A stretch of 57,157 bases of DNA from a virus (lineage: Duplodnaviria; Caudoviricetes), in the IMG/VR virus record IMGVR_UViG_3300025133_000125, positions 1 to 57,157 of that record. One strand, given 5' to 3'. This document shows, piece after piece, positions 7,237 through 48,150 of the stretch (the first letter of the stretch is position 1; the number at the start of each line of letters is the position of its first letter). A program made the translations under genes and the position numbers. Below the pieces are notes generated by a model, which saw only the letters and a program-made list of their open reading frames with translations, was not told the DNA's origin and searched no databases.

Positions 7237-7416
7237 ATGAAAAGAGCTAGAATGTGTGTTTACTTAGATGTTGAACTATCTAAGTGGATTAAAGATAACG
7301 CAATAGTCAACTATAGAAGTTTTTCCTCGTTTCTTAATAAACTAATGTTAGATTATAAGGACGGAATGGAAATAAACAATAATGTAAAAACTTTAAAGAG
7401 CGAAATTAAAAGATAA
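7237..7416 (+). CDS. Ribbon-helix-helix (Arc/CopG-like) DNA-binding protein
   Basis: MKRARMCVYLDVELSKWIKDNAIVNYRSFSSFLNKLM fits a beta-strand plus two helices. GAAAGG precedes ATG 7237 (track start 7165 is probably too long). Fills an otherwise gene-free gap. Confidence 0.6.
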   Translation: MKRARMCVYLDVELSKWIKDNAIVNYRSFSSFLNKLMLDYKDGMEINNNVKTLKSEIKR

Positions 7417-10400
7417 TCTTACTATAGCCTTGTTCTTGCTTTATTTCAAGAAGAATATCCGTAAAATCTCGCATTGTGTCTATATGTGATATTATAAGAG
7501 AGAATTGATAAATATTTTTTAAATATTGGAACAGTTGGTATAATGAATTAAGATTGTCCGAGTCCATTGTTCCCCATCCTTCATCAATAGCTATAAAGTT
7601 AGGTCTTGGAAGATTTGATATATTTGTTAGGGCAATTCTGATAGCTAATCCTGAAATAAACTTTTCCATGCCTGATGCCATTTCTAATGCCCACGATTTA
7701 TCATTATCGTAAGCAATATAATTGTTTATATTCTTTCCGTCCATGTCAAAGATAATTTGGAAATCTACAATTTGTGATAGTATATTGTTGACCTCTAATT
7801 CAACCTTAGTTAAAACCTTAGATATTAAATCATAGCTTACACCATTTTTATCTACAGCCATTAAATAGTATTTATACGCTTCATATTTCTCTTCAAGATC
7901 TCTGACTCTATTAATAATCTGTACAATCTCTTGCTTTTTTGTTTCTAATGCTGATTTTTTACCGACATACTGGTGAATATCATTTACTACTGCTTTTATT
8001 TCTGTCTCAATAATTGACTCAGATGATTTTTGATCATTTATCTTTAATTGTACCCTATCATTATGCTTAATATCTTTTTGATAGCCTTTGCTTCTTTTAA
8101 TCTCATTTTTTATAGAGGAAATGTATGACTCAGTACTCTTAATAGCATCATTAATATCTGTTATTCTAACTTCATACTGCTCAAAGTATTTTTTGTTATT
8201 TTTTAGTTCCTTCGTCAAGTCTAAAAATTCACTATAAGACTTAGGTACATCCTCATTAATTTGTATTTTATTCTCTAGTGTCTTTAATTTTGCAACTGTT
8301 GATGTTGCCCTTGTCTTATCCTGTTCTAAATCTTCTTTTGTCTTTATTGCATCTTTAACAAATACATTATTCATGCAATACGAACACCCAGGATCGTAAT
8401 CCAAGTTTCCTAGCTTATCTATCTTATCTAATTTATTTCTTACTTCAACCTTTAAATTATCTATTTCGTTTTTTGCCTCATTCCTTTGTGATACTATTAA
8501 CTCATACTCAACAACCCTATTTTCAATATCCTTATATTTTTCAGATTTAATTCTGTTAGCTAAAATTTCATCATTTCTTTTAGTTTCACTTGATTCATCT
8601 TTTGTACTATTGAGCCTTTTTAATAATTCTACTTTTTTACCTTCCTCTAGTTGTTGGCTGTCTTCTAATTCTTTCAAGTCCTTAATTGTAGCATCAATTG
8701 GCCTCATTGTACCCATTAAATCTAAAATTTTATTCTTATATTTGTCTCGATCAATTTCTTTTTTGCTTTGAGAATCTTCAAGCTTTGTTATAACCCCTTT
8801 TACTAGATTTAGCTCAGTTTCAATATCACTTATTTGCTGATCATAATCTACATCTAAAAAATTCTTTAACATCGACTGTAATCCGCTAGATTCCTCTTTT
8901 GCCAGCTTATATAATTGATCAAAAATAGATAAGCCTAAAAACTTACCTAAAATTTCTTTCTTTTCAGTCTGATTTTGTTCTAAAAATATAGAAGAATTTC
9001 CTTGTGCTGAAAAACTTGTCATTATAAAGTCATCATACGTTCCTATCAGCTTTCTAATATTCTTATTTGTTGAATTTCTTTGATCACCATTTAATGATAC
9101 CTTCTTACCATCTTCTAGTCTGTAAAAATCAACATCAACACGAGTAGCACCGTGCCTTAAAACTTTTCCAACGCGTTTAATAACGTATGATTCGTTGCCA
9201 ACATCAAATTCTAACTCACAACTAAAGTTTGATTTAGAATGGTTCATGACATTTTCTGCCTTATATGCTCTTGTTGACTTATCAAATAGGCAAAATGCTA
9301 ATGCATCCAAAATACTTGATTTCCCACTTGCATTCGGGCTAAATAAACCAGCAATCCCATTACATCTTTCAAAATTAATTACATTATCTTCACCATAAGA
9401 AAACATATTGCTAAATGTAAACTTTTTTGGTTTCCAGCTAATATTTCTAGAAATCTCCTCACCTACTAAAGAGCTACTGAGCTCTTTATTAATTTTCTTT
9501 ACCTTTTCAATAATTTCTTCATTAGCTGTTGTATTATTTTTCAAGTATTGTTCTATTAAACCATTCTGCACATCTGGATCAAATACATCCCCAAAATCGA
9601 CTATAGATGAATTTCCTGTATCAACTCTATATTCATCTTCTCTTATTATTGAGACTTCTTTAATATTATGCCTGTGTTTGATTATTGTGAGTGCTTTTTT
9701 TAAATCAGAGCTTGATGTATTTTTAACTTTTATTCTTAATCTAGCTTTGGGTGGTAAGTCATCTACTTTTGGTACAAGACCATCTTCTATATGAAGAGTA
9801 TAATAACCAAATTCATTTTCTATTTCTTTATGAATAAATTTTCTCTTCTTGACATCCCAAACTGATATGCCGTGTCCTTTTAATGTTTCACCATGATTCT
9901 GTTGAACTAATGAACCGCAGTATCTTACAATAGGTTTTTTAATTTTACCAGGTTTATATTCTTGCATTGTTTGCATTTTATGAATATCACCTAACATCAC
10001 CATGTCATAACCATCAAAATCTTTTAATTTAACAGCACTTGGAAGATAGAAACCTAAGTCAGTTTGTGACTTATCAACTGTTCCGTGATATAATAATATT
10101 TTTGTTTTTGCATTGATTGTTGCTGGATCTGGTAAATTTGATTCACTATCTCTAACTTCTAATACAGCAAATCCAACATCACCTACATAATAAATCCCTG
10201 ACTCATTTAGATAATGTAAATTTTCATTTTTAATGTTCTCTACAATCGGCTGAAGTACATCTAATCTGGATCTGTTATTTAAATTACAATCATGATTTCC
10301 TGCAATTAATAATGTAGGACATAATTCAGATAAACGTTTAAACAATCTAGAAAGTTGATCAACTAATTCGGGTGACATATCAGTCTTACTATGAGCAATG

Positions 10401-10564
10401 TCACCGCCAATATAAACTACAGCATTTTCTGTATCTTTCTTTATAAACTCATATAAGTTTTCAAATACTTGCTCATATTCTTTATGGCGTTGTAAATTTC
10501 TAATTTGTATATCTGAAATATGATATATCTTTTTTAAGGTTCTAAATTTTGTTTTAATTTTCAT
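7406..10564 (-). CDS. Fused Mre11/SbcD nuclease + Rad50/SbcC ATPase (gp47-gp46-like)
   Basis: Phosphoesterase motifs HISDIQ, GGDIAH, GNHD, YHG, GDIH. Walker A PNASGKSS, Q-loop FSAQG, coiled coil with CSYC zinc hook, signature ASGMEK, Walker B IAIDEGWGTMD, H-loop IISH. Confidence 0.93.
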   Translation of the reverse strand: MKIKTKFRTLKKIYHISDIQIRNLQRHKEYEQVFENLYEFIKKDTENAVVYIGGDIAHSKTDMSPELVDQLSRLFKRLSELCPTLLIAGNHDCNLNNRSRLDVLQPIVENIKNENLHYLNESGIYYVGDVGFAVLEVRDSESNLPDPATINAKTKILLYHGTVDKSQTDLGFYLPSAVKLKDFDGYDMVMLGDIHKMQTMQEYKPGKIKKPIVRYCGSLVQQNHGETLKGHGISVWDVKKRKFIHKEIENEFGYYTLHIEDGLVPKVDDLPPKARLRIKVKNTSSSDLKKALTIIKHRHNIKEVSIIREDEYRVDTGNSSIVDFGDVFDPDVQNGLIEQYLKNNTTANEEIIEKVKKINKELSSSLVGEEISRNISWKPKKFTFSNMFSYGEDNVINFERCNGIAGLFSPNASGKSSILDALAFCLFDKSTRAYKAENVMNHSKSNFSCELEFDVGNESYVIKRVGKVLRHGATRVDVDFYRLEDGKKVSLNGDQRNSTNKNIRKLIGTYDDFIMTSFSAQGNSSIFLEQNQTEKKEILGKFLGLSIFDQLYKLAKEESSGLQSMLKNFLDVDYDQQISDIETELNLVKGVITKLEDSQSKKEIDRDKYKNKILDLMGTMRPIDATIKDLKELEDSQQLEEGKKVELLKRLNSTKDESSETKRNDEILANRIKSEKYKDIENRVVEYELIVSQRNEAKNEIDNLKVEVRNKLDKIDKLGNLDYDPGCSYCMNNVFVKDAIKTKEDLEQDKTRATSTVAKLKTLENKIQINEDVPKSYSEFLDLTKELKNNKKYFEQYEVRITDINDAIKSTESYISSIKNEIKRSKGYQKDIKHNDRVQLKINDQKSSESIIETEIKAVVNDIHQYVGKKSALETKKQEIVQIINRVRDLEEKYEAYKYYLMAVDKNGVSYDLISKVLTKVELEVNNILSQIVDFQIIFDMDGKNINNYIAYDNDKSWALEMASGMEKFISGLAIRIALTNISNLPRPNFIAIDEGWGTMDSDNLNSLYQLFQYLKNIYQFSLIISHIDTMRDFTDILLEIKQEQGYSKIIF

Positions 10565-18229: not shown

Positions 18230-18573
18230 TTTAATTTTATTCCAAACTTTTTTAGTTTCGCGTGTAATCCTAACATCCAAGAATAAACTGCCTTCTCAAT
18301 ATCTGCTTTGCCTTCATACTTTACTAATACTCTAAAGATGTCATTATTAATGTATTTTAAAGCTCTGGCCAAATCATAATCAGGAGCTTCTTCATTTACA
18401 GATTCTTTTTCTACTTTTTTAATTAGTTTTGCGCCGTCTTTTAATCCACTAGCAACTTTTTCAGCAGCTTCCTTTTCATTCTTTGCGCTAACAGTTTTGG
18501 ACATTAGGCCAGCAGAGCCAACATCAAAGTAAACTGTATACTTATCTTCTAATAAAGATTTTAATTTGATCAT
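18226..18573 (-). CDS. Putative head-packaged two-module protein
   Basis: MIKLKSLLE leader; KESVNEE linker. Confidence 0.65.
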   Translation of the reverse strand: MIKLKSLLEDKYTVYFDVGSAGLMSKTVSAKNEKEAAEKVASGLKDGAKLIKKVEKESVNEEAPDYDLARALKYINNDIFRVLVKYEGKADIEKAVYSWMLGLHAKLKKFGIKLK

Positions 18574-18995
18574 TTTGTCACCTTCTTAACTTTTTCAATT
18601 GAACGACCTGCGAAGTATGCTGCGTATACAGTCATTAATAGTGTTTGATAAACTGGCACATATGCAGCACCAATTGTAAAATCTTCACCTGCAATTTGCA
18701 AGTTCCCATCAAATACACTTAATACAGTAAAGACAGCAGTTAAAAATATCAATGTTAATGGTCTAATATTTTTTGATAACCAACTTCCGTGTTTCATATC
18801 AGCTTCCCATCTTGCTGATACTTGTGCTTGAGCTGCTTGTTCTGCTTTGGCTAAAATTTCAGTAATTCTTTCTTTTGCAGCGGCTTTCTCTTCACCTGAA
18901 GTATGTAAATTATCTATAATCCCACCTACATCTTTTAATGTATCACCACCTAATAGTGATCCAGCTGCCTTTCCTAGTGTTGCTAATAAACTCAT
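18570..18995 (-). CDS. Holin, GTA-type 'holin of 3TMs' family
   Basis: RWEADMKHGSWLSKNIRPL, TM segments, AYFAGRSIEK C-terminus. Confidence 0.8.
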   Translation of the reverse strand: MSLLATLGKAAGSLLGGDTLKDVGGIIDNLHTSGEEKAAAKERITEILAKAEQAAQAQVSARWEADMKHGSWLSKNIRPLTLIFLTAVFTVLSVFDGNLQIAGEDFTIGAAYVPVYQTLLMTVYAAYFAGRSIEKVKKVTK

Positions 18996-19006
18996 AACTA
19001 TTCTCC

Positions 19007-19342
19007 TTAGTATTCAAAACCCCAGGGTTCAGAATTATTTCCGCCCTTTATTGCATACCATATATCTTTAACTCTAAAATACCAAAATTTATTTGTCTCT
19101 AAAACATAAAATTCACCTTTAGGTGTTTTAAAACTTTTATTTGGTCCAAACTTAACTGTCATAGGTGCACCGTCATCCCACATCTTATCAGTCGTTTGAC
19201 CTTTTACCATCGTCCCATCACCAACAGCTTTATAAATTCTAGATCCTGGGTAATCTCCTTTTAGAGACGCCAAACCCTCAGGCATTCCTTCATTTAAAAT
19301 ACCTTCACATAGCATATCAATATTATCTTTTAACTTAATCAT
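19007..19342 (-). CDS. Putative head-packaged protein
   Basis: MIKLKDNI...GILNEG leader. Confidence 0.55.
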   Translation of the reverse strand: MIKLKDNIDMLCEGILNEGMPEGLASLKGDYPGSRIYKAVGDGTMVKGQTTDKMWDDGAPMTVKFGPNKSFKTPKGEFYVLETNKFWYFRVKDIWYAIKGGNNSEPWGFEY

Positions 19343-19713
19343 TAATAATCCTCACCAGCTATTGCTTCTTCAATTGCATCTTTAATATCTCCAGGCTCTA
19401 CATCAATCATACCATCCATATCGCCTTTCCATGTATCTATTTTATCACCGTTTATAAATAGCGCAATTGAAGGAAAATTTCTCAATCTTAATTTTTTACA
19501 ATATTTTTTTGTGTCTTCTGACATAGCTTTAATGATAATCGCATTTTCATGTCCCTTCACACCCTCAACGTATTTCATGCCATCACTTTCAGCCCACTTA
19601 GATGTAAATACAACTACAACTACTTTATCATTTATTCTTTCTTTAAAATTCTTATCAGTAACTTGTCCAAGCAAGGTAGATAAGAAAAATATTAATCCAA
19701 TTAAATATCTCAT
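19342..19713 (-). CDS. Exported thioredoxin-fold protein lacking CxxC
   Basis: Signal peptide; VTDKNFKE, VVVVFTSKWAES (WCxxC replaced), cis-Pro motif RNFPSIALFING. Confidence 0.75.
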   Translation of the reverse strand: MRYLIGLIFFLSTLLGQVTDKNFKERINDKVVVVVFTSKWAESDGMKYVEGVKGHENAIIIKAMSEDTKKYCKKLRLRNFPSIALFINGDKIDTWKGDMDGMIDVEPGDIKDAIEEAIAGEDY

Positions 19714-19722
19714 ATCTTACTC

Positions 19723-20319
19723 CTATTTCTTATCCTTTTTTCTTCGTTCAAGATCTTTAACATCTTTTTGTAATTCTTTCATTAAATCTTTTAACTCATC
19801 TAATGCACCAAATACATCATCTACATCATCTTGTAAACCGCCAACTTGAGACTTATATTGCTCAAAAGATCTTGGCCAATTATGGCCCCCTGGCTTTGAT
19901 GGATATTCCGCCTCATATAAACTTTCTAAACTCGGTAATTCTTTTGCTTCTTCAATCTCACTTTGTAATGCATACCACATACCAATCAATGAAGCAAGGC
20001 CTGTCCCAGCTGCTATCATAGTTTGAATTGATAATGTAAACTTAGTATCTAATACTTTATCTTCACTTATTTCGATTGGTTCTTTTTTCTTAGGTTCTAT
20101 TTTTTCAGCAATCACTTCTTGATGTTCTTCATGACCATTACCATTTTTTAATATAGTATCTGTTATATCCTCTAAAGAACAAAAACCTTTGTCAACAAGT
20201 ATTTCTCCAAGAGATCTTTTATCACCTTTAACTTGTGCCTGTAATGCTTGATTTAATTGTCTTCTTGTGATAATATCTTCATCACATAACAATTTACCTA
20301 TTTTAATATCTCCGTTCAT
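19723..20319 (-). CDS. MshEN-like (c-di-GMP receptor) domain + single TM + C-terminal coiled coil
   Basis: Two tandem 24-aa motifs, KIGKLLCDEDIITRRQLNQALQAQ and SLGEILVDKGFCSLEDITDTILKN, match RLGxxLLxxGLIxxxxLxxxLxxQ; TM LSIQTMIAAGTGLASLIGMWYAL. Confidence 0.75.
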   Translation of the reverse strand: MNGDIKIGKLLCDEDIITRRQLNQALQAQVKGDKRSLGEILVDKGFCSLEDITDTILKNGNGHEEHQEVIAEKIEPKKKEPIEISEDKVLDTKFTLSIQTMIAAGTGLASLIGMWYALQSEIEEAKELPSLESLYEAEYPSKPGGHNWPRSFEQYKSQVGGLQDDVDDVFGALDELKDLMKELQKDVKDLERRKKDKK

Positions 20320-20546
20320 AATATTTCTTTTAATACTTTCCTAAGCTTATTTGTGTCTCTATATTTTAATGCTTCTGCTAACTCTGTTTTTTGCTTAGCC
20401 CAAACAATTTTATCACTAAGCGATTCTAAAATAAATGATGCCCAATCAACTATAGCTTGATCGCTTTCATCTACTATATAATTAATTCTCTCACCAACTT
20501 TGCCGTCATCTTTGATGTAACTAGTTTTTTCTACACCTTTTTTCAA
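20316..20546 (-). CDS. Hypothetical protein
   Basis: TTG start with GGGAG SD; coupled to both neighbours. Confidence 0.6.
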   Translation of the reverse strand: MKKGVEKTSYIKDDGKVGERINYIVDESDQAIVDWASFILESLSDKIVWAKQKTELAEALKYRDTNKLRKVLKEIL

Positions 20547-20695
20547 CGTATTCTCCCATAAGGATTATTTTTAATTTTATTATCACCCTTAGCTAACCAT
20601 TTTTTATGTTGAACTGCAGTCCTACCTTCTGTTTTTAGCTTTTTATTTAATGCTGCTCTTTTACGCTTTCTATCTTTTGCTTTTTTATTTGGCAT
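20543..20695 (-). CDS. Small basic protein (50 aa; not in track)
   Basis: MPNKKAKDRKRKRAALNKKLKTEGRTAVQHKKWLAKGDNKIKNNPYGRIR; GGAG SD; fills the gap exactly. Confidence 0.7.
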   Translation of the reverse strand: MPNKKAKDRKRKRAALNKKLKTEGRTAVQHKKWLAKGDNKIKNNPYGRIR

Positions 20696-21279
20696 TAGTA
20701 ATACTCCGAGTAGAATGTAGCTGATGTATCTGTTCCTATAGCAACATTCTCAAATAATAGTAATCCGTTTTGTAATGTTTCGTTGTATGGATTCCAAAAA
20801 GTTCCCTCTACAACTCCATCAACTACATTATTTTCATTTCTAAGTATTGCTCCTTGAGCATTTGATGTGTAGTCTGACAAACCTACTATCTCTAATGTGA
20901 CACCCTTTGTAGATTGAGATGCTGGATTAACATAAGAACCCTCGTCAATTAAATCATCATTATTTATAGCATCAATGTCATATAAGATTAAAGCATAATG
21001 TTCTTTCTCAGGAGTTACTCTGCCGCCATCTTTTTGAAAGTGGATTACAAATACCTTTTTAACATCACCGCTATCTGTAAGCGTTCCCACACCGTAGGTA
21101 GTTACACTTTCATAATAATCATATACAGGTATTTCATCACCATTTAACCACATTTGAATTAACGCTTGTGGTTCTTCTTCATCCTTTCGGTCATCACAGC
21201 TTGACATCATAAATAATGATACCATCAATAACGAACCACAAATTACTCTTACTATATTATATACTTCTTCATGCTTCAT
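20695..21279 (-). CDS. Lipoprotein
   Basis: Hydrophobic stretch ending in lipobox-like MSSC, then an acidic linker and a beta-rich domain. Confidence 0.65.
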   Translation of the reverse strand: MKHEEVYNIVRVICGSLLMVSLFMMSSCDDRKDEEEPQALIQMWLNGDEIPVYDYYESVTTYGVGTLTDSGDVKKVFVIHFQKDGGRVTPEKEHYALILYDIDAINNDDLIDEGSYVNPASQSTKGVTLEIVGLSDYTSNAQGAILRNENNVVDGVVEGTFWNPYNETLQNGLLLFENVAIGTDTSATFYSEYY

Positions 21280-21280
21280 T

Positions 21281-22567
21281 CTAGAATCCCATAAATTGGT
21301 AGTTTAATCCAAACTTAAAGTCATAAGCTGGACGTTCCCAATAATATAAATATTTACCTTCGGCAAAGACTCCAAGATTGTCTTTTATTTTAACACCGAA
21401 TATCGCACCGTAATCATAATCATTCCATGTCATCCACATTGGATCCATATACATAAATTTATGTGGATCTTTGCCATCTTCTAAATGCGTAGCATAGTCT
21501 GCTGCATTATGATATGAATATTTGTCATGACCAAAATGATAAGGTAACCAATTACCCCAAGCATGAATCCACCAATTATCTGAATGATGATAATAATCCA
21601 TACCCAATACGATTGACGTTTCTTTTTGAAAACCAAGTCCTCGTTTAACTCCATCTATATATTCTTCTAACATACCTGGAAAATGATACACAAAATATTC
21701 TCTGTCTGTATAAGCAAATATTCTACCATCAGCATCTCTCCATAACCAATCGTGACCCCAATACTCTCCACCTTCATTCCAAAATGGACCAGAACCTTCA
21801 ATTGGTACCCATTCACCATTTACGTATTCTAATAGTTCGGATTCAATCCAATTACCATCTTCATCAATTGCATTTCCATCGGCCCACATATTATCGTCAA
21901 TACCAAAAGCATCTTCTGCAAAATCCCACCATGAACCACGATACCAAGTTGTGTCCAATACCATAGCATCAAATCCGTATACAGGATGTTGTCTATGTTT
22001 TGCACCAACACTTACTGTAAAGCCATTATCTAATACCGGTAACGTCCACTTTACTCTTAAATCACCTTGACTATATACAATATCTTCCAAGCCCAATTCT
22101 GACCAACCGACTTTGGCCATATACCAATCACCAGTATATCGTAACCAATATTCTTGATTAATGTATTCTTCGCCCCATTGACGACCTTCTGACCATTTAA
22201 ATAAGAATTCCCATCCTTTAACTGGTGCTATTGTTGCACTTTCATTAGCATTCTTTTCAGAACCATCGTACCAAGTACCACCTTTACCTGCGTTTTTAAC
22301 ACCTCGTTTTGGTTCATACTTAAATCTACCAATTTTTCTTAATCCAAATGATTTTTGAAAATCTGGCTGGAATTCTCTTTCATCCCTGGCGACTTCCAAT
22401 TGTCCAGTACTTAATCCACCAATTATACTGAATCTATCATCTTGATGCCGCGGAGCATTTAAGCTGAAACTTGCGTAAGCTGTAGAATATTTAAAAAATT
22501 TCCAAAGCTCTGTTTCAGCAAACAAAGATGAGGTTAACAGTAACCCAATTATAATGTTCTTTAACAT
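21281..22567 (-). CDS. Outer-membrane beta-barrel protein
   Basis: AGGAG SD before ATG 22567; signal peptide MLKNIIIGLLLTSSLFA; aromatic-rich alternating strands; C-terminal YDFKFGLNYQFMGF. Confidence 0.7.
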   Translation of the reverse strand: MLKNIIIGLLLTSSLFAETELWKFFKYSTAYASFSLNAPRHQDDRFSIIGGLSTGQLEVARDEREFQPDFQKSFGLRKIGRFKYEPKRGVKNAGKGGTWYDGSEKNANESATIAPVKGWEFLFKWSEGRQWGEEYINQEYWLRYTGDWYMAKVGWSELGLEDIVYSQGDLRVKWTLPVLDNGFTVSVGAKHRQHPVYGFDAMVLDTTWYRGSWWDFAEDAFGIDDNMWADGNAIDEDGNWIESELLEYVNGEWVPIEGSGPFWNEGGEYWGHDWLWRDADGRIFAYTDREYFVYHFPGMLEEYIDGVKRGLGFQKETSIVLGMDYYHHSDNWWIHAWGNWLPYHFGHDKYSYHNAADYATHLEDGKDPHKFMYMDPMWMTWNDYDYGAIFGVKIKDNLGVFAEGKYLYYWERPAYDFKFGLNYQFMGF

Positions 22568-22586
22568 CTGTTTTTCTCCTATTATA

Positions 22587-23657
22587 TTAAATATCAAATC
22601 TTATCACAAAAGATAAAGCTAACTCAGGATCATTTCGTATTGGTCGTGAAGTTTTAGCAATAGCCAGTAAATCACCAAAGTCGTTATACAACCCAACTGT
22701 TGTAATATATGGTGCAAAAAATGAATGCGTTACCATATTATCAGCAGCAGGTGCAGCATTATATCCGCTTGCTTTATATGCAAACTCACCAGGTGCCAAT
22801 ATTTGTCGTAATGCATCTGTGTCAGCAGCCACAGAAGCAGGAATTGTTAAACTACCGCTTCTTTCTTTTGTTGCACTTATATTCATTGTACCATTATATT
22901 TTTCCATTGGAATCATACATGTGTATTCATGTTCGTAAACTGTTCTTGTTGCATCAAAATCTAATTTCCAACCAGTTGCATTTGATCCACCTGCTACATT
23001 TTCGTAATAACTTCCTGTTGATGAAATCATAATTAGGCCGTGATCATATGAAATAACTCCAAGTGACGACCCGGATCCTTCTGCTGTAGGTGTACCAGCT
23101 TTGAATTCTGATTCATATGCTGAATCATATAAATTTCCGCAACCGTCATCTTTAACTATTACAGCCGATCCGTTAGAATAATCTGTAAGCTCTATTGATC
23201 CTGATTTTATTCCTTCACCAAAAATTTTCTGTGGTATACTGATAACATTAACATCATTATAGATTCTTCTTAGCCCAAGCTCTTCATAAAGCACAGATCC
23301 GGAAGATGCTGGATGCCCAAATGGCATATGATATGAATCTAAAACATGTTGTGGTTGTGGTGATTGATATAGTCTATTATCTGAATGCGCAAATTCAAAG
23401 AAATTTAATTTAAGTTGTCTATATAGGGGCTCTTTATAAATTTTTATAACTTCACCTTTAGAATTTGAAACTGTATTAACTGCTGATGTACTTGTTTGAA
23501 ACCCAGGATTTCCTATTAAGCTACCTGTAATTGCATGTAAAGCCATAATATCATAATCAGTAGCAGTATCGACACCACCATAATACTGTACTGAAAATGT
23601 TTTATTAATTTCGTATGGAGTTACTCTTTTATCTTCTTTTCTAATTGGTGTGAACAT
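22587..23657 (-). CDS. Baseplate/tail structural protein
   Basis: C-terminal YITTVGLYND..LLAIAKTSRP; paralog of 23715..24737. Confidence 0.7.
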   Translation of the reverse strand: MFTPIRKEDKRVTPYEINKTFSVQYYGGVDTATDYDIMALHAITGSLIGNPGFQTSTSAVNTVSNSKGEVIKIYKEPLYRQLKLNFFEFAHSDNRLYQSPQPQHVLDSYHMPFGHPASSGSVLYEELGLRRIYNDVNVISIPQKIFGEGIKSGSIELTDYSNGSAVIVKDDGCGNLYDSAYESEFKAGTPTAEGSGSSLGVISYDHGLIMISSTGSYYENVAGGSNATGWKLDFDATRTVYEHEYTCMIPMEKYNGTMNISATKERSGSLTIPASVAADTDALRQILAPGEFAYKASGYNAAPAADNMVTHSFFAPYITTVGLYNDFGDLLAIAKTSRPIRNDPELALSFVIRFDI

Positions 23658-26689: not shown

Positions 26690-29600
26690 TTATTCATTAC
26701 TGAAATCTACTGTTAAATTATTATTGTCCCCCTTCTTGTCAACCTTGACAGAATAGGGATTTGTTTCATAAATTTCCACTGCTTGTAGAACGCCGTCAGG
26801 TGATCTTGAGCCATCATTTTTACATCCTTCGTAAGCTAATCTAAAAAGCCCTGTATGACTGTTATAAACAGATTCGTACTCACTATACTGATATGATGAT
26901 GAGTATGCCAATCCTAACGATGCACTTAAAGATGATGAATAAAATGGTATCGTCTCTTTATTAAATGATGATTTTCTAGATGCGGTAATCATAGGTTGAA
27001 AATTTTCAAAAAATATATCAGATCCTCCAGCCATATAAACTTGAGAATCAGCATAGTCGCGAGCTTCTGACAAGGGTTCATCAAGTGGATCTTTACCAAA
27101 TCCTTTTAAAGTGGGCATATAGGTCATTGGCCCTTGCTCTGAATTAAATTTTTCTGTCTCAAATTCATCTCTACTTGATTTAATTGAACCAGTTTGACAT
27201 AATCCTATTGATACGTAATCATGTCTAGATCCTGTTGTTTTTCCTGTCAACACTGTATCAGAAATATTACCCGTTTTAAAATCATAAATACTTTCTGCAG
27301 GTATCGGTAAAACTGATGTTGATGCTGTGGAATATTTAAATAAACTGGTTGGCTCCGGATATGTTGCATCAATTTCTGCATTTTTAGCAATATCTTTGAA
27401 TATAGGTGGTGCTCCCATAACAACTTTTGGTCTTTCTAAAAGATGTGACTCTATTAATAAACCAATATTCTTTTTAGCACGAGCAGGAGCTAGTTTTCTT
27501 ATATGATCAAAAAGGCTAAGATCATAATACTTTATTAATTTGATATAATCCCAAAATCCTTGTCGTGTTGTCCATTTTTTCCAATATGTGTCTGTAATTC
27601 CATCTAAGTTACCATGTGTATATCGTTCCTCATACACGTCACGAGGATCCCCAATATATTTAGCAAAATCCAAGTCAGCAAGTGATAACATAATATCTTC
27701 ATTAATAACATCTGAAGGGGCAAAAAATACCCCCAATTTATTTGAGTCTAATCCAGCGTTATCAAATGAGCTTATCTCTACTCTTTCTGTAGGACTTAAA
27801 TTTGCTTTTCCTCCGTCTGGAGATTTGAGTGTAGCACTTTCAATTCTTATCTTATTAGCTTGTGAACCAAATCCTATTTTAGGAACAAAAGCCTTTTGTC
27901 TATCTGCTACATTGCTAAAATTAATTTCATCAGAGAATCCGGATCCAGTAACGTATACTTGACCATCTGTATGCGTGTAATCTTTTAACCCTTTGGGATT
28001 ATCATATAAGTTAATATAATCATCCATAGATAATCTAAAACTTAAATCATAGTATGATGAACTAGGATTGTTTCCATTAACTGCTTTGGGTGCACCAACA
28101 TGATTCCAAAATGCATTTGCATTAAGTGGTGTTGACCAATATCTAAACTCCATCATAGACCCACTAAATTGTGTACCTATACTACCATCAGCATTTCCAC
28201 CAAGATACCATCTATTAGCGGGAGTAGTACTACCTGTTGTGTACCATCCTGATAATGTACTTCCCGATACTGTCATGCTTCCTGATTCTTTTATTTTAAT
28301 TCGATCCATTCCTGCATCGTAATATCCAAGAAACATATCAAAACTTTGTGTAGTAGCAGTCAAATCATTATCAAAATATTGTTCAGTATAACTATCATCC
28401 ATAGAGCCTGTTCGTCTTCTAACCATTAATGACCAGTACTCGTTATTATAAATCCCATGATCAGTAATACTCATACTTTGCACACTGTCAGATCCGCTTA
28501 CAAAAAAGTTAATTTGCCCCTTGCCATCAATGGCCTGATCAGCAGGCCCAAGCACTGCTGTAGCAATTGCACCACTTCCCACAGAAGTATTCTGATGTAT
28601 TGTTATTGTGGGCGCGCTAGTGTAACCAAAACCACCATTTGTCACAGTAATTCCTGTAATTCTACCATTTGCAGGATTTACAGTCGGCGTTCCCGTGGCT
28701 CCGGAGCCTCCTCCACCAGAAAATGTTACCCAAGTTTCTAATGGCAAATAATCTGATCCTACCACGTCCATAGTCACACTACTTATAGGAGACCCAACTG
28801 TTGTCTTAAGATAAATTGCCGCCTCTGTTTTGCCATTACCATCGAGTTTATTTGCTAATATCTGATTTGCCTCATAAGGTGTTTTAAATCTCATTTCAAT
28901 AGTATCAGGTGCTTTTTCTTTTGATGTATGATACCACGGCACTTGAATAGATTGTCCTCCCTTAAAATCTAATGCCTTTGTAAATTTTTGTTTTATTTCA
29001 AAATCTGGTTCTCCTGTCGGTCTTGGGCCTCCGTATTCTTGTATTCTTAAAATAGAGGTTGGTATACCATAAGCAGAAAGTAATGCCTTTAAAGATTGTT
29101 TCGTACCTTTTGTTTTTAGCATATACGGCATTGTAGATAAAATTCTATTCCATATCTCCCTTGTTACATCTTTTTGTGATTTTTTTGTGTATCTGATATT
29201 ATAAATACCACTTTTAGAGCCAGATTCTGATAGACCTAAATGATATTGAGGAAGCGAAACAAGATCACGCCCTTCTATCATATCAAAACCAAGTGAGTTA
29301 GCTACTGGTTCTACTAATGCTTGTGAAATTCCTTTTGTTACATCTTCACTTCTATCATGAACATCTGATAATGCTTTTATATGCGTCCAAATAATATCGT
29401 AATGGTGTCCCATCATATCCATAAAATGTAAAAATTCTATATTTTCTCTATCAGTAGAAATATGCTCAGGTAAAAGATTAACTAATCTATTTCTATTATT
29501 TCTATCATAAAGACGTGCAGTGTCAGCTGCGCTACTATACCACTCTGTAAATTGAGAGCTGGTAACTGAATATAAAACATATGGACTAGTTAACGTTCCA

Positions 29601-32600
29601 TCTCCAGATATTTTTGGTGCACTGTTATCAAAAAATTCACCCAAAGAACTTGTTACATATGCTTCATGTTCAAAATACATATAATTTTCAAAATCATCAA
29701 AACCATTAATCACACTTCTAACAGAATTTTCCCATCTTCTTATTTCAGAAGCTGAGCCACTTACAGCTGATCCAGCTGTATTGAGTAAATAACCAGCAGA
29801 GTCACCTGTTCCACTCAATGATGCACTGTTTGCTTTATATGTTTCGATATTTGTTAATTTTATTTTAAAATTATTTATTCTCTTTTCTGCAGAACTAAAA
29901 TGAACAAAATTTTCATATTGCCTATAGTCTATATTAATATTAACATTTTCTAAGCTTCCACTTAAAATTCTATCTTCTAATTGATCCTTAACGCTTTGTT
30001 CATTGCCAATTAAATCAGTATGTGTTTTATATTCTGTTGCTCTATCTCTTATGGGTATTTCTACATCTGACCAGTTAGGTTGTCTTAAGACGGTTTCAGG
30101 TAATTTTTCTTCAATGAAAGGATTAAGATCAATTGTTTCTCTAAGTGTAGGTGTAACTTCTTCAGCAATAAAAACTGTATCAAGAGGTTCAATTCCAACT
30201 TCAAGTGGTTTTATTAATTTGTATGCTATGCTTCCTGGATATGTTTCAGAACTTATTGGCTTGAAATTTGTTATTAGTGATTTTGAATCATCATTCGGAA
30301 TAATATATGTATAAAGATTATCTGCATCTTTTGAGCGAAAACGAACAAAGTAATCATCAAGTGTAGTTGTTGATAAATTTACTGCGTCAGGTCCCGTCAT
30401 TACAGCATTAATTTCATTTCCATATTCTTCATATGATTTGTTTAGTATTAATTTTTTTTGTGTTTCTAAATCATTTTGAACATCTAAAATTTTTCCTTCA
30501 TATCTTGCATAAATATTTTCTGATCCACTTGGTTGTGATATATAGCCTACTGAAAACCCTGAATCAAATGATGAGTACTTATTGACGCCATAGCTTGATA
30601 CTATTCCACCTTGTTCTTCTGATGCTTCAGTATATGTTTTATCAACTTCAATTTGATTTTCATTGAATATATTTGTTATTGTAAATTCTAAAGGACCTAA
30701 TACAGCATTTTCCTGTACTTCAGGTCGATCTAGTGAACTCTTAATAATTGAAAGATCAAATTTATCTCCCCACACTGTACCAAAAGCCCCATAATGCCCT
30801 CTTACTTCTATAAAAATAGGCATGTCTAGTGCAAAAAAATCTGTAATTTCAAATTCTAAAGTTGCTTTTTCCCATTGATTATATTCCTGGCAAGGAGAAT
30901 GACTAATAGCACTTGGCCCTGAATTAAGTGCTTCTGTTCTATATGTTCTTCGATATAATGTTACATTTTCACCTTCAACCTCATATCTAGTAGACCAACT
31001 AATAGAGCCGCCTCCTTCATATCGTGTAGTCCAATCACCGTAATTGGTGCCACCAATATTTCTATTCCATACAAAGACACCGTCACTAGAAATATTTACA
31101 TTTGTTGGATAGTCTTCATAAGAAGGGTAATAGAGTTCAGCGGCTAAATACTTTGATCCGAGTTGACCCCCGGGCAAGGCGGTGTATGCAAACTTTCTAA
31201 AAGCATTTGGACTCATCTCATCTTCACCCGGCCATACTGCTGCATCTAATCTTGCCATTGTCCAATATCCAAAGTAATCATCAGTATAATTACTATCCGC
31301 ATTATATGAAAAGTCCCATTCATTTGTTGTTACCCAATACCACTTGAATGCTTCTGATTGTTCAATCTCGCCTGCATCAGTTATATAATCACCGCCAGCT
31401 CCTGATGCAGTAGGATTGTCTACGCCATATTGATCCAAAAAGGAAGAGACTTGATCTCCATCTGTATTCGCCCAATTGGGTTCTAAATCTACTGGTGCGT
31501 GATTATCACTATACGCAGCAAAATTATCTGGACCTCCATAGTGTAAATGAAATGCTCTATCCTCTGCCCAGACATCGTCATCTGTTACCATTAACGGTTC
31601 AGGTGGCGCTATGTCTGTTGCAGTCCAATGATTTATTCCTACCCATAATCCTTTTCTACCACCTTGTTCAAAATCAATAGGATCGGATTTTTGCATCCAT
31701 GTAACCAGAACTTTATCACCAGCCCTTACTCCATAAGCAGATAATGCGCCAATTCCTTTATAGTTTTTATTATTTATATTATCACCCTGATATGAGTAAA
31801 TTTGTAAATGTCTATGTGCATAATCATTTTTACTAGCAAGCACATCTTCACTTGGTACTACTTTTCCAAATGCATCTCCTGCGTCTCTTCTTGCTTGCAC
31901 CATTTGATCAAAAATATAATCTTGATAGTTTAAATCTGGAAAACACATTGCAACACCGCCGTCTACACCTTTACCTGCTTTCCAATGAGCATGATAACCT
32001 ATGTCTGCTGTGCCAACATAATATTGTGACCAAGCTAAACTAGATAATCCGTTACTCCATCGTCTAACATCCTTGTCAGTTGTCACCCTTATTGCTTGAC
32101 CATTTAATGCAGCATCTGGAAGATGATAATAATATGGAGATCCTCCTTCGTCTCTTTTTTCTTGATTATTTTGATGCACAACTGCGACTTCTCCACCCTG
32201 TGTTGGGTCTCCTACAGCACCATTTGCGGCCTGCATATCCCATTCATAAATTTTTTCACTTTCAATTTCAGATATTATAAAGTCAGATGATAAATCTAAA
32301 ATAGGATGTGCATCATTTATTATAAGTTTTCCACCAGCCATTATTGATTTAAATTCATCACCGTCTGCTAATTCACCAATTATAATTTTCCCATCAGGGT
32401 CATCAAATTTTAATATAGTATCTATTGGCTGTTCTTTAAATAATTCATCATTACTACCTTCTCTATGAAATGGTGTCAAGGTAACTCCAGGTTCTAATTG
32501 TGCTCCTGCAGTTAAAAAATATTTTGTGTTAATATTAGCTAAATTTGATGGGTCCCAATTATCTCTTGGTTCCCATATAATTCTTATTAACAGCTTATTA

Positions 32601-34120
32601 GATAGATTTGTATCTGATAATGTAAATGTAAAAGAGTGTCTTTGCCATTCACTCGTCAAAATAACCCACGAAGAGAATTGTGTTGATGATGTTACACCCC
32701 ATGGGTCAGCATGTGCCATGCATCTTAATTTATCTCCTGGTTCACCTTTTACATAACAACTAAATGTCATTGTATAATCTTCTACAATTATTCCTGGTGG
32801 TAATGGGAAAACTGGTGTAGTTTGAAATTGTAAATTACCATATATTGCAGATGATATTGCCAATGGCTCATTTTCACTTTTAGCACCACCGCCCTCTGTT
32901 CTTGGTAAATTTAGGTATGATGAGTCTAAATTCAAAGTATTCTGAAATATTGCCTTAATAGCAAATTGACCAGCTGGATTAGGATCTATAACATTTTCAA
33001 GTCTAAGTGCTTTTTTATCATCAAATTCTACAGCATCACCACTAAAATTGATCACACCATCATTTGGCCAATTACCCCCACTTCTCCAGCCAAATGTCGT
33101 TTCCATCGTCCTACCCTTTAATAAGTTAGGGGTTACTTCAAAAATATCTGTTGAGGGTTCAAATGATTCTTCTTCTCTAATTTCATCAATTATTCTTTTG
33201 CCCATAAAATATGCATTATTAATTCTAATAGTGCCGTTCATAAATGTCATTGGCATATTATTATTAGTATTAAATGATAAAATATTAGAAGAAGGATTTC
33301 CAAATGATGCAGCTGGTGTAGGATCTTCATCAGAGAACCAATTAATACAATTGTATGCAGCAACTCTAAAACTTTCTAAATATTCTTCATCATTAATAAA
33401 TGAAGGGGAAAGCAAAACCTCAGTTCTATCTCCTGAAATTTTTTGAATGATATATTTATTTTCCCTGGGAAAAAGCTTGTCACCCTCTACAGTTTCTGAA
33501 TCTAGATCATCTTGACTAGCATAAAAATATTCATCTGGTTTTTTCTCATAGTTACCATTAAATATTTTATCATTTTCATTAACTAAAACTGGAAAAGGGC
33601 TTCCAGCTTGTAATCTTAAAAAATCAAACTTAACTTTAAATCTTCCTCTTTTAAATCCAAGCTTTCGTAATATTTCTCCAGCGTCAATTGCTGTAATAGC
33701 GGGTTTTCCTGGCATTTCTTGATTAACATATGAGTTAATTTTATCATTTGTAACATATTGAGATGAAATTAAACTACCGTTATTGCCGTAAACACATACT
33801 CTAATTAGGTCAGCTTTGTCTGCGCCAAATGCAAGATCAGGCCACTTTAAAGAACCATATTGTTCATTTTTTAATTGATCATAAAACTCAACATCTCTAA
33901 ATGACTTATAATCAAGTGTATCTGGGCGCCTAATTAAATCATAAATCTTTTTAGGTATATCAACATCTCTATTAAGTTTTTGATCTACCAGACTATAATG
34001 TAAATCTAAGTCTAGCTTATCATCTTTAACTGTGCGAACAGAAGGCAAGCTTCCTTGAGCACCAGGGTTGCGACCCGATGGTGTCCTAGATTTGCCACTA
34101 TATTTTTGTGTTTTTGCCAT
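26690..34120 (-). CDS. Large baseplate wedge protein (gp7/gpI-like core) with carbohydrate-binding-like and LamG-like insertions
   Basis: LPEHI...LKTKGTKQSLKALLSAYG..LRIQEYG wedge motif; FSCYVKG..EWQRHSFTFT..GAQLEPG CBM-like segment; ITVTNGGFGYTSAPTITI; FSGSMMEFRYW; follows the gp6-like gene. Confidence 0.7.
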   Translation of the reverse strand: MAKTQKYSGKSRTPSGRNPGAQGSLPSVRTVKDDKLDLDLHYSLVDQKLNRDVDIPKKIYDLIRRPDTLDYKSFRDVEFYDQLKNEQYGSLKWPDLAFGADKADLIRVCVYGNNGSLISSQYVTNDKINSYVNQEMPGKPAITAIDAGEILRKLGFKRGRFKVKFDFLRLQAGSPFPVLVNENDKIFNGNYEKKPDEYFYASQDDLDSETVEGDKLFPRENKYIIQKISGDRTEVLLSPSFINDEEYLESFRVAAYNCINWFSDEDPTPAASFGNPSSNILSFNTNNNMPMTFMNGTIRINNAYFMGKRIIDEIREEESFEPSTDIFEVTPNLLKGRTMETTFGWRSGGNWPNDGVINFSGDAVEFDDKKALRLENVIDPNPAGQFAIKAIFQNTLNLDSSYLNLPRTEGGGAKSENEPLAISSAIYGNLQFQTTPVFPLPPGIIVEDYTMTFSCYVKGEPGDKLRCMAHADPWGVTSSTQFSSWVILTSEWQRHSFTFTLSDTNLSNKLLIRIIWEPRDNWDPSNLANINTKYFLTAGAQLEPGVTLTPFHREGSNDELFKEQPIDTILKFDDPDGKIIIGELADGDEFKSIMAGGKLIINDAHPILDLSSDFIISEIESEKIYEWDMQAANGAVGDPTQGGEVAVVHQNNQEKRDEGGSPYYYHLPDAALNGQAIRVTTDKDVRRWSNGLSSLAWSQYYVGTADIGYHAHWKAGKGVDGGVAMCFPDLNYQDYIFDQMVQARRDAGDAFGKVVPSEDVLASKNDYAHRHLQIYSYQGDNINNKNYKGIGALSAYGVRAGDKVLVTWMQKSDPIDFEQGGRKGLWVGINHWTATDIAPPEPLMVTDDDVWAEDRAFHLHYGGPDNFAAYSDNHAPVDLEPNWANTDGDQVSSFLDQYGVDNPTASGAGGDYITDAGEIEQSEAFKWYWVTTNEWDFSYNADSNYTDDYFGYWTMARLDAAVWPGEDEMSPNAFRKFAYTALPGGQLGSKYLAAELYYPSYEDYPTNVNISSDGVFVWNRNIGGTNYGDWTTRYEGGGSISWSTRYEVEGENVTLYRRTYRTEALNSGPSAISHSPCQEYNQWEKATLEFEITDFFALDMPIFIEVRGHYGAFGTVWGDKFDLSIIKSSLDRPEVQENAVLGPLEFTITNIFNENQIEVDKTYTEASEEQGGIVSSYGVNKYSSFDSGFSVGYISQPSGSENIYARYEGKILDVQNDLETQKKLILNKSYEEYGNEINAVMTGPDAVNLSTTTLDDYFVRFRSKDADNLYTYIIPNDDSKSLITNFKPISSETYPGSIAYKLIKPLEVGIEPLDTVFIAEEVTPTLRETIDLNPFIEEKLPETVLRQPNWSDVEIPIRDRATEYKTHTDLIGNEQSVKDQLEDRILSGSLENVNINIDYRQYENFVHFSSAEKRINNFKIKLTNIETYKANSASLSGTGDSAGYLLNTAGSAVSGSASEIRRWENSVRSVINGFDDFENYMYFEHEAYVTSSLGEFFDNSAPKISGDGTLTSPYVLYSVTSSQFTEWYSSAADTARLYDRNNRNRLVNLLPEHISTDRENIEFLHFMDMMGHHYDIIWTHIKALSDVHDRSEDVTKGISQALVEPVANSLGFDMIEGRDLVSLPQYHLGLSESGSKSGIYNIRYTKKSQKDVTREIWNRILSTMPYMLKTKGTKQSLKALLSAYGIPTSILRIQEYGGPRPTGEPDFEIKQKFTKALDFKGGQSIQVPWYHTSKEKAPDTIEMRFKTPYEANQILANKLDGNGKTEAAIYLKTTVGSPISSVTMDVVGSDYLPLETWVTFSGGGGSGATGTPTVNPANGRITGITVTNGGFGYTSAPTITIHQNTSVGSGAIATAVLGPADQAIDGKGQINFFVSGSDSVQSMSITDHGIYNNEYWSLMVRRRTGSMDDSYTEQYFDNDLTATTQSFDMFLGYYDAGMDRIKIKESGSMTVSGSTLSGWYTTGSTTPANRWYLGGNADGSIGTQFSGSMMEFRYWSTPLNANAFWNHVGAPKAVNGNNPSSSYYDLSFRLSMDDYINLYDNPKGLKDYTHTDGQVYVTGSGFSDEINFSNVADRQKAFVPKIGFGSQANKIRIESATLKSPDGGKANLSPTERVEISSFDNAGLDSNKLGVFFAPSDVINEDIMLSLADLDFAKYIGDPRDVYEERYTHGNLDGITDTYWKKWTTRQGFWDYIKLIKYYDLSLFDHIRKLAPARAKKNIGLLIESHLLERPKVVMGAPPIFKDIAKNAEIDATYPEPTSLFKYSTASTSVLPIPAESIYDFKTGNISDTVLTGKTTGSRHDYVSIGLCQTGSIKSSRDEFETEKFNSEQGPMTYMPTLKGFGKDPLDEPLSEARDYADSQVYMAGGSDIFFENFQPMITASRKSSFNKETIPFYSSSLSASLGLAYSSSYQYSEYESVYNSHTGLFRLAYEGCKNDGSRSPDGVLQAVEIYETNPYSVKVDKKGDNNNLTVDFSNE

Positions 34121-47394: not shown

Positions 47395-47545
47395 TTTTCT
47401 TGTTCCTCTCGGCTCCAAAAATCTTTTCCCAATTTTCAGCATACTTTGATTGACTTCCGCGTCTTTTATCACCCTTACCAGCATCAGAATATTTTTTTGT
47501 TACCTTTGGTTCCTCTTTTTTTTGTGAAGATTTTTTATCACTCAT
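47384..47545 (-). CDS. Small basic protein (53 aa; not in track)
   Basis: [53 protein letters not shown]; ATGA overlap with the def stop. Confidence 0.65.
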
Positions 47546-48150
47546 AGACAACACTTTTTATATTTCTTACCACTACCACAATGACAAGGTTCGTTACGAC
47601 CAGTTTTCTTTTTACTTACTATTGGTTCTGGTTTATTTTCTCTGTCCATAATAGTTTTACCGTTTAGGTGATCAATCTCATGTTGAATGCAAACTGCTTC
47701 TAATATTCTTTGTTCTTGATCTTGCTTGTGTCTATCTTTTTCCCACGATCCTTTACCTTCTTCACCACTTTCTTCTCCGCTAAAATACCAACCACTTTCT
47801 TCTTGTTCAGTTTTTATTATTACATTTTTATATCGTTTAGTGTGAACACCTTTTTTTGGAAATGATAAACAACCTTCATAATAATCTATCTCATCCCATT
47901 GTTCTTCAATGACAGGATTAATTAAAATAATCGGCTCCCGAACATTAACCACAGCAACAGAAGCATCAATCCCAACTTGATTAGCAGCAAGACCAATGCC
48001 ATCCTTCCGCTCTGCGAGGATAGTGAATAAATCTTTCGCAATATGTAGTCCTTCATCTACTGATACCTTTCGTAGTTTTTTGTTAATGACTGGATTGTCA
48101 TTCTTAAAACAATCTATTACTTCATGTTGATGATATGAAAATCTAGTCAA
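47542..48150 (-). CDS. def: Peptide deformylase with C-terminal SEC-C motif
   Basis: [24 protein letters not shown]; C-terminal [18 protein letters not shown]. Confidence 0.95.

Follow-up and report, generated by a model that had tools for sequence, protein, structure and literature searches.

A phage-encoded MshEN_N-type domain fused to a predicted membrane and coiled-coil module in a marine virus genome fragment

The MshEN domain has been described as a bacterial receptor for cyclic di-GMP (c-di-GMP) carried on pilus and secretion ATPases and on glycosyltransferases, and its N-terminal part, MshEN_N, binds one c-di-GMP in MshE, PilB/PilF, and NfrB through two tandem 24-residue motifs. Our full-text literature searches returned no published account of a virus-encoded MshEN domain, and in public data we found a single trace, all-viral clusters that automatic naming labels “GspE N-terminal domain-containing protein.” Here, we analyze the 57,157-base IMG/VR virus record IMGVR_UViG_3300025133_000125 (the window; 31% complete according to CheckV), which we estimate to derive from an uncultured marine myophage of roughly 180 kb and which encodes a 198-amino-acid (aa) protein that begins with an MshEN_N domain (the head) and continues into an acidic linker, a predicted membrane helix, and a coiled-coil tail (Table 1). 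We regard the protein as a variant architecture in which a known MshEN_N domain probably serves as the signal-input head of a late envelope or lysis module.

Proteins that adjust the timing of phage lysis are known from T4 lysis inhibition, in which the holin T has a cytoplasmic, RIII-binding N terminus and the antiholin RI has a signal-anchor-release (SAR)-type helix. Closest to the head is MshEN_N of Vibrio cholerae MshE (PDB accession number 5HTL), a bundle of about 60 residues built from two 24-residue helix-turn-helix motifs, of which the isolated residues 1 to 62 suffice for binding with a dissociation constant (Kd) of 0.35 µM (Wang et al. 2016, PMC5013675). Thermus thermophilus PilF contains both a binder, GSPII-B (8PDK), whose motif I starts with Lys, whose motif II carries at position 1 a Leu that stacks on guanine, and whose Kd is 6 nM (PMC11731258), and a nonbinder, GSPII-A (9G1W), whose motif II starts with Ser and whose failure to bind is also ascribed to an N-cap helix and to subdomain contacts (PMC12002112). 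An MshEN-type domain stands at the C terminus of the NfrB-type glycosyltransferases, which are envelope-acting membrane proteins (NCBIfam NF008411; PMC8669469), and the i-spanins, such as lambda Rz and T4 PseT.3, are inner-membrane proteins whose periplasmic domain is helical or forms a coiled coil and which are recognized by the gene of a cognate outer-membrane lipoprotein, embedded in their own gene, overlapping it, or next to it (Kongari et al. 2018, PMC6139136).

Read directly, the head of the phage protein contains the two motifs K1 I2 G3 .. L6 C7 .. D10 I11 I12 .. L17 .. L21 .. Q24 (motif I; in protein numbering, the key residues K6 I7 G8 ... L22 L26 Q29) and S1 L2 G3 .. L6 V7 .. G10 F11 C12 .. 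I17 .. I21 .. N24 (motif II), with R35 standing one residue before the latter. The spacer between them, V30 to R35, has six residues against five in MshE, which HMMER renders as a gap of one residue against 5HTL. The NCBIfam model NF053729 (“c-di-GMP_motif, MshE-related”; 53 residues) matches residues 6 to 55 at an E value of 3.7e-12 and 45.8 bits, above its curated cutoff of 38 bits, and it matches all 22 of 22 related phage heads as well (E ≤ 8e-10). Searched with phmmer against the sequences of the PDB, the protein retrieves PilF (8.1e-9) and MshE (0.0034), and a profile of the 22 heads retrieves PilF (9.3e-13), Geobacter-type PilB 5zfr (3.7e-11; 44.8 bits over a single stretch), and MshE (1.8e-6); a weak match to the NfrB-type model NF008411 falls on the MshEN part (residues 6 to 59; E = 0.0058). 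Fifteen columns are invariant across the 22 heads, the ligand-contact positions G8, L22, Q29, and G38 do not vary among them, and hydrophobic residues are retained at I7, L26, L37, I52, and I56 even in heads with as little as 41% identity. Covariation links two core positions, C12 and C47, as expected of packed helices: of 107 heads, 85 have C/C, 19 combine L or M with I, V, or L, 2 have L/C, and 1 has V/A.

Modeled by itself with AlphaFold 2 (AF2), the head consists of four helices (residues 2 to 13, 19 to 30, 37 to 44, and 49 to 60), with a predicted local distance difference test score (pLDDT) of 87.1 and a predicted template modeling score (pTM) of 0.70. A VIA-align fold search of 48,161 solved chains with this model places 5htl_B (MshE; Z = 9.7), 8pdk_A (PilF GSPII-B; Z = 9.2), and 6f8l_G (PilF GSPII-C; Z = 8.6) first, followed by XpsE-N (2d28_C; Z = 8.2) and X. 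citri PilB-N (7lkm_A; Z = 7.2), below which come unrelated helical domains with Z scores of at most 6.3; a second alignment to the MshEN_N fold gives a Z score of 9.8, and the match to the nonbinding GSPII-A is weaker (Z = 5.8). With the full-length model, the nine best Foldseek rows against the PDB are all MshE or PilF (E = 0.044 to 0.38), no row reaching an E value of 0.001, and a fold search of BFVD likewise returned nothing at E ≤ 0.001. Compared with MshE, to which it superimposes with a root mean square deviation of 2.2 over 58 residues at 33% identity, the head keeps the G3 residue in each motif, L17, L21, and Q24 in motif I, and hydrophobic residues at the contact positions; it changes R9 to K, G18 to D, R38 to S, and Q61 to N, lacks both the MshEN_C subdomain and the ATPase, and is phage-encoded and fused to a membrane helix and a predicted periplasmic tail. 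The head is a genuine MshEN_N homologue, and its homology and fold are settled. An earlier note, written from the sequence of the window alone, had called the head MshEN-like; the curated profile, the family profile against the PDB, and the fold search all bear it out. The two 24-residue motifs that the note described are present, the spacer between them has six residues and not the five of MshE, and direct reading confirms its remarks on Asp for Gly at position 10 of motif I and on Ser for Arg in motif II with an Arg one residue upstream.

The open reading frame (ORF) of the protein starts with ATG and overlaps the stop of an upstream 76-aa ORF (20316..20546) by 4 nucleotides (nt). Its full-length AF2 model, built with 47 relatives, has four short helices within residues 2 to 59 (pLDDT of about 77 to 79), disorder from residues 60 to 105, a low-confidence helix at residues 98 to 126, and a confident helix at residues 152 to 197 (pLDDT of 78 to 88), along which hydrophobic residues recur at a 3-4 spacing from L162 to L190. 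The linker is acidic (10 D+E against 6 K+R over residues 60 to 95, with pLDDT below 50) and differs in length between relatives, and the membrane helix, the best-conserved stretch across the family, has Gly, Ala, Ser, or Thr at 12 of its 24 positions. The helix is flanked by three K+R residues on the N side and one on the C side; from these charges and from the hydrophobic N terminus of a partner protein (see below), we predict an N-in, C-out topology that would place the head in the cytoplasm and the tail in the periplasm. The sole PHROG match of the protein is phrog_6664 (97 positions, function not assigned), which covers residues 99 to 194 (E = 1.4e-5). The phage protein differs from the NfrB type in that it has no glycosyltransferase domain, carries the head at the N terminus, and has as its putative output a periplasmic coiled coil.

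TABLE 1 Positions in the 57,157-base window of the 198-aa protein, its parts, and its neighbors
Feature	Position	Strand	Basis
Gene of the 198-aa predicted bitopic membrane protein (head, linker, membrane helix, tail)	19723..20319	-	ORF list
Head, residues 1-62, MshEN_N-type four-helix bundle	20134..20319	-	NF053729, AF2, fold search, PDB profile search
Motif I, K6-Q29	20233..20304	-	Direct reading, HMMER alignment to MshE 9-32
Motif II, S36-N59, degenerate at positions 1 and 24	20143..20214	-	Direct reading
Acidic, length-variable linker, residues 60-93	20041..20142	-	AF2, charge count, relatives
Predicted membrane helix, residues 94-117	19969..20040	-	Hydropathy, AF2
Tail, residues 118-198, EYPS..NWP..EQYK block and heptad helix 152-197	19726..19968	-	AF2, phrog_6664
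Predicted secreted thioredoxin-fold partner gene without CxxC	19342..19713	-	Pfam Thioredoxin, 5.7e-6
Holin-family gene, two genes downstream	18570..18995	-	phrog_3427, E = 7.3e-28
Lipoprotein-like gene (..MMSSC/DD.., then acidic run)	20695..21279	-	Lipobox-like motif by eye
438-aa exported-looking protein, hydrophobic N terminus, ends ..YQFMGF	21281..22597	-	Synteny

The part of the protein behind the head also occurs without it. Among 60 related IMG/VR loci, 39 encode a form with the head, 20 a complete head-less form, and 1 a form cut at the contig end, a ratio biased in that two of the six search patterns fall in the head or linker. The head-less forms, of about 116 aa, run from the membrane helix through the EYPS..NWP..EQYK block to the coiled coil; none of the 20 loci has the head as a gene of its own within 4 kb, and the head-less form of locus L039 has no PHROG match at E ≤ 0.001. 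With or without the head, the gene has a near-constant companion, since a thioredoxin-like gene lies directly downstream, less than 200 nt away, in 50 of the 53 loci that are testable by virtue of having at least 450 nt of downstream DNA. The thioredoxin-like proteins have a hydrophobic N terminus, which we read by eye as a signal peptide, are cysteine-free, with no CxxC motif, lack a lipobox Cys in all 44 distinct sequences, and share the invariant residues K74, L75, R76, R78, N79, P81, S82, W95, K96, D100, and G101 in 30 relatives. The three loci without this gene (L053, L055, and L059) coincide exactly with the variants that have no EYPS..NWP block in the tail, which suggests that the block is the contact to the thioredoxin-like protein; the interaction between the two is itself predicted from synteny. 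The charged linker, single membrane helix, and coiled coil described in the earlier note are borne out by hydropathy, AF2, and direct reading. What that note treated as a mere membrane anchor is, judged by its conservation, its occurrence without the head in 20 of 60 loci, and its partner in 50 of 53, a conserved module with a secreted partner of its own.

To place the joining of head and module, we built a tree of the membrane helix and tail (34 rows and 116 columns, from a quick IQ-TREE run with midpoint rooting). The head-less forms fall on one side of a single branch (Shimodaira-Hasegawa-like approximate likelihood ratio test support of 95), such that one change explains the presence of the head, and midpoint rooting nests the head-less clade among head-bearing forms. 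Because the head-bearing forms diverge to 36 to 40% identity and because the tree calls for only one change, the fusion appears to be both old and single. The earlier note had proposed a check on whether homologues of the membrane-helix and coiled-coil part usually lack the head, as a sign of a recent fusion; those at 20 of the 60 loci lack it, and a recent fusion is ruled out by this divergence, the single change, and the nested position of the head-less clade. At E ≤ 0.001, and among proteins of 108 to 347 aa, the family has 3243 relatives (as 90%-identity clusters), most of them from marine metagenomes.

The genomic surroundings of the module point to late phage functions. The holin-family gene of the window has counterparts in L006, L017, and L009, in the last of which it directly follows the thioredoxin-like gene, and an endolysin-type gene lies 1.5 to 2.5 kb downstream on the same strand in four other loci, as GH108 in L038 and L051 and as phrog_465 in L039 and L055 (in L055 at about 1.5 kb). 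In another phage lineage, the pair of tail and thioredoxin-like genes comes after tail-fiber genes and before small membrane proteins, among which are a weak Rz-like match (1.3e-4) and a weak holin match (5.4e-4). Within the head-less lineage, the pair stands in a run of overlapping small genes (L039:4700-4942, 4932-5195, and 5958-6269; likewise L043:3455-3754, 3741-4007, and 4749-5057), whose products are coiled-coil proteins with a single membrane pass and one small lipoprotein (..IVSSC/DD..).

Bacterial H-NOX genes usually adjoin the gene of a signaling partner. At two of our loci, an intact H-NOX gene (HNOB; E of about 4e-46) overlaps the start of the head-bearing gene (L053:3445-3993 with L053:3989-4480, and L055:3445-3993 with L055:3986-4480), and these H-NOX-linked relatives have a shortened tail and no thioredoxin-like gene downstream. 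The overlap speaks for the head as an input domain and, equally, as a protein-docking domain.

We tentatively favor, at a confidence somewhat short of even, a reading in which the head is a second-messenger input on a late phage envelope module with the topology and pairing proposed above. The head would face the cytoplasm and be connected, through a flexible acidic linker and one membrane helix, to a helical coiled-coil tail in the periplasm, where the tail would work with the product of the next gene downstream, a thioredoxin-fold protein predicted to be secreted and redox-dead. Tail and thioredoxin-fold protein would together form a widespread phage envelope module, late-acting and encoded close to holin and endolysin genes, onto which the head would have been grafted long ago as a regulatory input. 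The head would most likely sense a guanine-nucleotide second messenger, foremost c-di-GMP, whose binding may be weak or may follow a noncanonical register that uses R35, and through it the state of the host would influence when, or how actively, the envelope step proceeds. The further-reaching proposal that the phage gates the coiled-coil/dead-thioredoxin module across the inner membrane by c-di-GMP or, in some relatives, by the state of a phage-encoded H-NOX gas sensor, and so times lysis or envelope remodeling, we consider unlikely. By analogy only, the protein recalls T4 T, RI, and RIII, where a bitopic lysis-timing protein integrates cytoplasmic and periplasmic input and where a membrane helix may likewise be rich in Gly, Ala, Ser, and Thr.

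Binding of c-di-GMP can be weighed residue by residue in 113 unique heads, a set that is dominated by close relatives, holds only sequences that fit a regular expression, and includes 6 bacterial repeat proteins. Motif I keeps its key residues: Q29, at position 24, is Q in 112 of the 113, and the Lys at position 1, which the earlier note had counted as a deviation, is also the residue of the nanomolar binder PilF GSPII-B, which rules out the notion that R-to-K at this position weakens binding; the consensus there has since been widened to R, K, or L (PMC11731258). Other departures are tolerated: in PilF, Ile for Leu at stacking positions costs only 2.4-fold (PMC12002112), and sub-µM binding remains after single Gln-to-Glu changes at position 24 (PMC11731258). 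Position 10 of motif II is G in 105 of the heads, and R35 is R in 94, so placed that it might compensate for S36.

Several observations, on the head, its host, and its surroundings, weigh against the reading of the head as a messenger input on a late module. Position 1 of motif II carries no large stacking side chain (R, K, or L): it is S36 here, which HMMER aligns with R38 of MshE and S39 of PilF, and T or S in 83 of the 113 heads (T in 50, S in 33, K in 16, and R in 3). In the otherwise repaired PilF9-65 (GSPII-A), Ser at this position abolished binding (PMC12002112). Position 24 of motif II is Asn here and H in 45, N in 17, S in 13, and Q in 13 of the heads, the six-residue spacer occurs in 111, and the turn Gly at position 10 of motif I is Asp here and in 101 of the 113. 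The fold is common to two nonbinders, XpsE-N and the PilZ-binding PilB-N of X. citri, both among the matches given above. A search of the window confined to GGDEF found none, five related viral records (51 to 87% complete) contain neither GGDEF nor EAL, and, if our guess at the host is right, it counts further that a GGDEF match occurs in only 1 of the 61 genomes of the family of a metagenome-assembled genome (MAG) labeled Pelagibacter. The profile searches advised in the earlier note gave a divided answer, in that NF053729 recognizes the head, as described above, and Pfam PF05157 (MshEN; 90 positions) does not match the protein at E ≤ 10; its sole Pfam match is DUF4388 (E = 0.077), the phage-type representatives P0128, P0140, and P0159 match no Pfam family either, and PF05157 is present in 4 of 27 proteins scanned (P0228, P0233, P0243, and P0253). 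The topology is a prediction, and the top 19-residue hydropathy window (residues 94 to 112) has a mean of 1.42, which is moderate for a membrane helix. As for a role in lysis, a holin lies within 4 kb in only 3 of the 60 loci, no endolysin is recognizable within the 57-kb window, and the 198-aa protein matches no spanin PHROG at E ≤ 1.

The spacer may not be disqualifying, because in a profile alignment the spacer of PilB 5zfr also varies in length. Deeper-branching relatives (for example, the L022 type, P0123, P0140, and P0141) have K or R as the first residue of motif II, and the abundant clade that holds the window protein may on this account have weakened or altered an ancestral site. For the allele at 19723..20319 itself, binding of c-di-GMP is doubtful, and binding at a physiologically relevant level seems to us rather less probable than its absence.

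The PilB N-domain of X. citri binds PilZ, and GspE N1 binds GspL; these interactions serve as the model for the strongest rival, namely, that the head is a protein-docking module that takes its input from a partner protein (the H-NOX sensor in some relatives and another host or phage protein here) and is not a nucleotide receptor. The H-NOX overlap in L053 and L055 fits docking, as do the fold matches to the PilB-N/PilZ complex 7lkm_A and to XpsE-N and the degeneracy of motif II at positions 1 and 24, and the exposed hydrophobic positions that the heads have kept could equally form a protein interface. Against this stand the near-invariance of Q29, whose counterpart in MshE bonds to ribose and phosphate, and the score of the head above the cutoff of a curated c-di-GMP motif model; moreover, the window contains no H-NOX gene, and the small ORF that the gene overlaps upstream has no relative in the 60 related loci. 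We judge docking to be rather unlikely.

A second rival takes the head to be an inert or oligomerizing extension of a spanin-like or holin-associated lysis protein whose membrane helix and coiled coil act alone. The head-less forms are complete genes with the same partner, and no split-off head lies within 4 kb of them; holin and endolysin genes occur nearby, and the layout of a membrane helix followed by a predicted periplasmic coiled coil resembles that of the i-spanins, which are also encoded in late regions near holin and endolysin genes (PMC6139136). The resemblance is limited. The helix that is N-terminal in i-spanins is internal here, behind a 93-residue part that is predicted to be cytoplasmic, and is N-terminal only in the head-less forms, and the constant partner is a predicted secreted thioredoxin-fold protein without a lipobox instead of an outer-membrane lipoprotein. 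The gene has no lipoprotein gene inside it or directly behind it, and no same-strand ORF of at least 40 aa lies within it; the lipoprotein-like gene near the module changes position between loci, and L043 has a separate weak Rz-like candidate beside the module, apart from the lack of a spanin PHROG match. An inert appendage would be expected to decay, and the head has been kept across forms down to 36 to 40% identity with its 15 invariant columns, which argues against inertness. We consider this rival quite unlikely.

The earlier note had also suggested a decoy for pilus or type II secretion system (T2SS) machinery, that is, a membrane-tethered PilB/GspE N-domain that titrates a partner of the type IV pilus (T4P) or T2SS motor and, for example, blocks superinfection via pili. 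The top single-stretch profile match of the heads is indeed the N terminus of PilB (5zfr), and phages are reported to disarm type IV pili through PilB or PilZ (PMC13436744, PMC11461919), but no pilin-type motif was found in the window, no T2SS or T4P Pfam family in the 38 ORFs scanned, and the constant partner of the head is a periplasmic module, not pilus genes, all of which makes a decoy very unlikely. That the protein is a sponge that depletes the host's c-di-GMP, for which only the identity of the domain speaks, is extremely unlikely, as each membrane-anchored protein has one predicted site, that site is degenerate, and the constant coupling to the envelope module would be left unexplained.

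Upstream of the head-bearing gene, the gene of the 438-aa exported-looking protein is found in 35 of the 48 loci with at least 2.5 kb of upstream DNA and in none of the 11 truly head-less testable loci; it is also absent from the head-bearing loci L053 and L055. Its product is 62 to 93% identical across myophage loci and has no Pfam, PHROG, or NCBIfam match, and in these data the gene appears to belong to the myophage lineage and not to the core pair. The lipoprotein-like protein between the two has no family match, and by tblastn its gene sits before or after the pair, depending on the locus. Among the head-bearing relatives, the intact genes L003:4001, L006:4001, and L017:4001 start with TTG instead of ATG, and at L020:4001-4570 a K-type head frame is open with no ATG before the head.

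All ORFs of the window with a family match lie on the minus strand, GC content ranges from 29 to 38%, no tRNAs were found, and the gene content includes a myophage baseplate (gp25 and a gp6-like wedge), an SbcCD-like nuclease, a primase, and a ligase. The nearest relatives of the baseplate wedge are in Microcystis phage Mel-JY01 (48%) and the Flavobacterium “immuto” phages (39%). Searches by tblastn with the 198-aa protein, a head-less form, and the 438-aa neighbor gave no match in 50,697 phage records, a collection from which records very close to the window may be missing, and so tied no cultured phage in it to the gene. One 1,052-aa ORF (7406-10564, minus strand) joins a calcineurin-like phosphoesterase (SbcD-like) N terminus to an SbcC/SMC-like ATPase. 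Two giant ORFs, also on the minus strand, encode 2,375 aa (3-7127, running off the window) and 2,476 aa (26690-34120, adjoining baseplate genes), with PHROG matches to short stretches only, and further PHROG matches on the minus strand identify a peptide deformylase (47542-48150), an Hsp20-family protein (50899-51381), and an esterase/lipase (53359-54135), which look like host-type auxiliary genes.

The gene is also found on MAG contigs labeled Pelagibacter, Methanosarcinales, and Marinimicrobia, which are probably binned phage DNA. One of these, a 71,886-base contig in a MAG labeled Candidatus Pelagibacter sp. (L061), carries a full-length relative with 59% identity, and partial relatives occur on two more MAG contigs.

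The family is very common in marine metagenomes. A head that binds a messenger or a sensor protein would show phages sensing the state of the host at the membrane and would offer an experimental handle on an undescribed envelope module; if host state does gate the module, the protein would represent the first c-di-GMP receptor of a virus and a novel type of lysis regulator. A nonbinding head would present a clean case of a receptor fold reused for another purpose. The S/T, K, and R alleles that nature already provides at position 1 of motif II also lend themselves to testing the binding rules derived from PilF.

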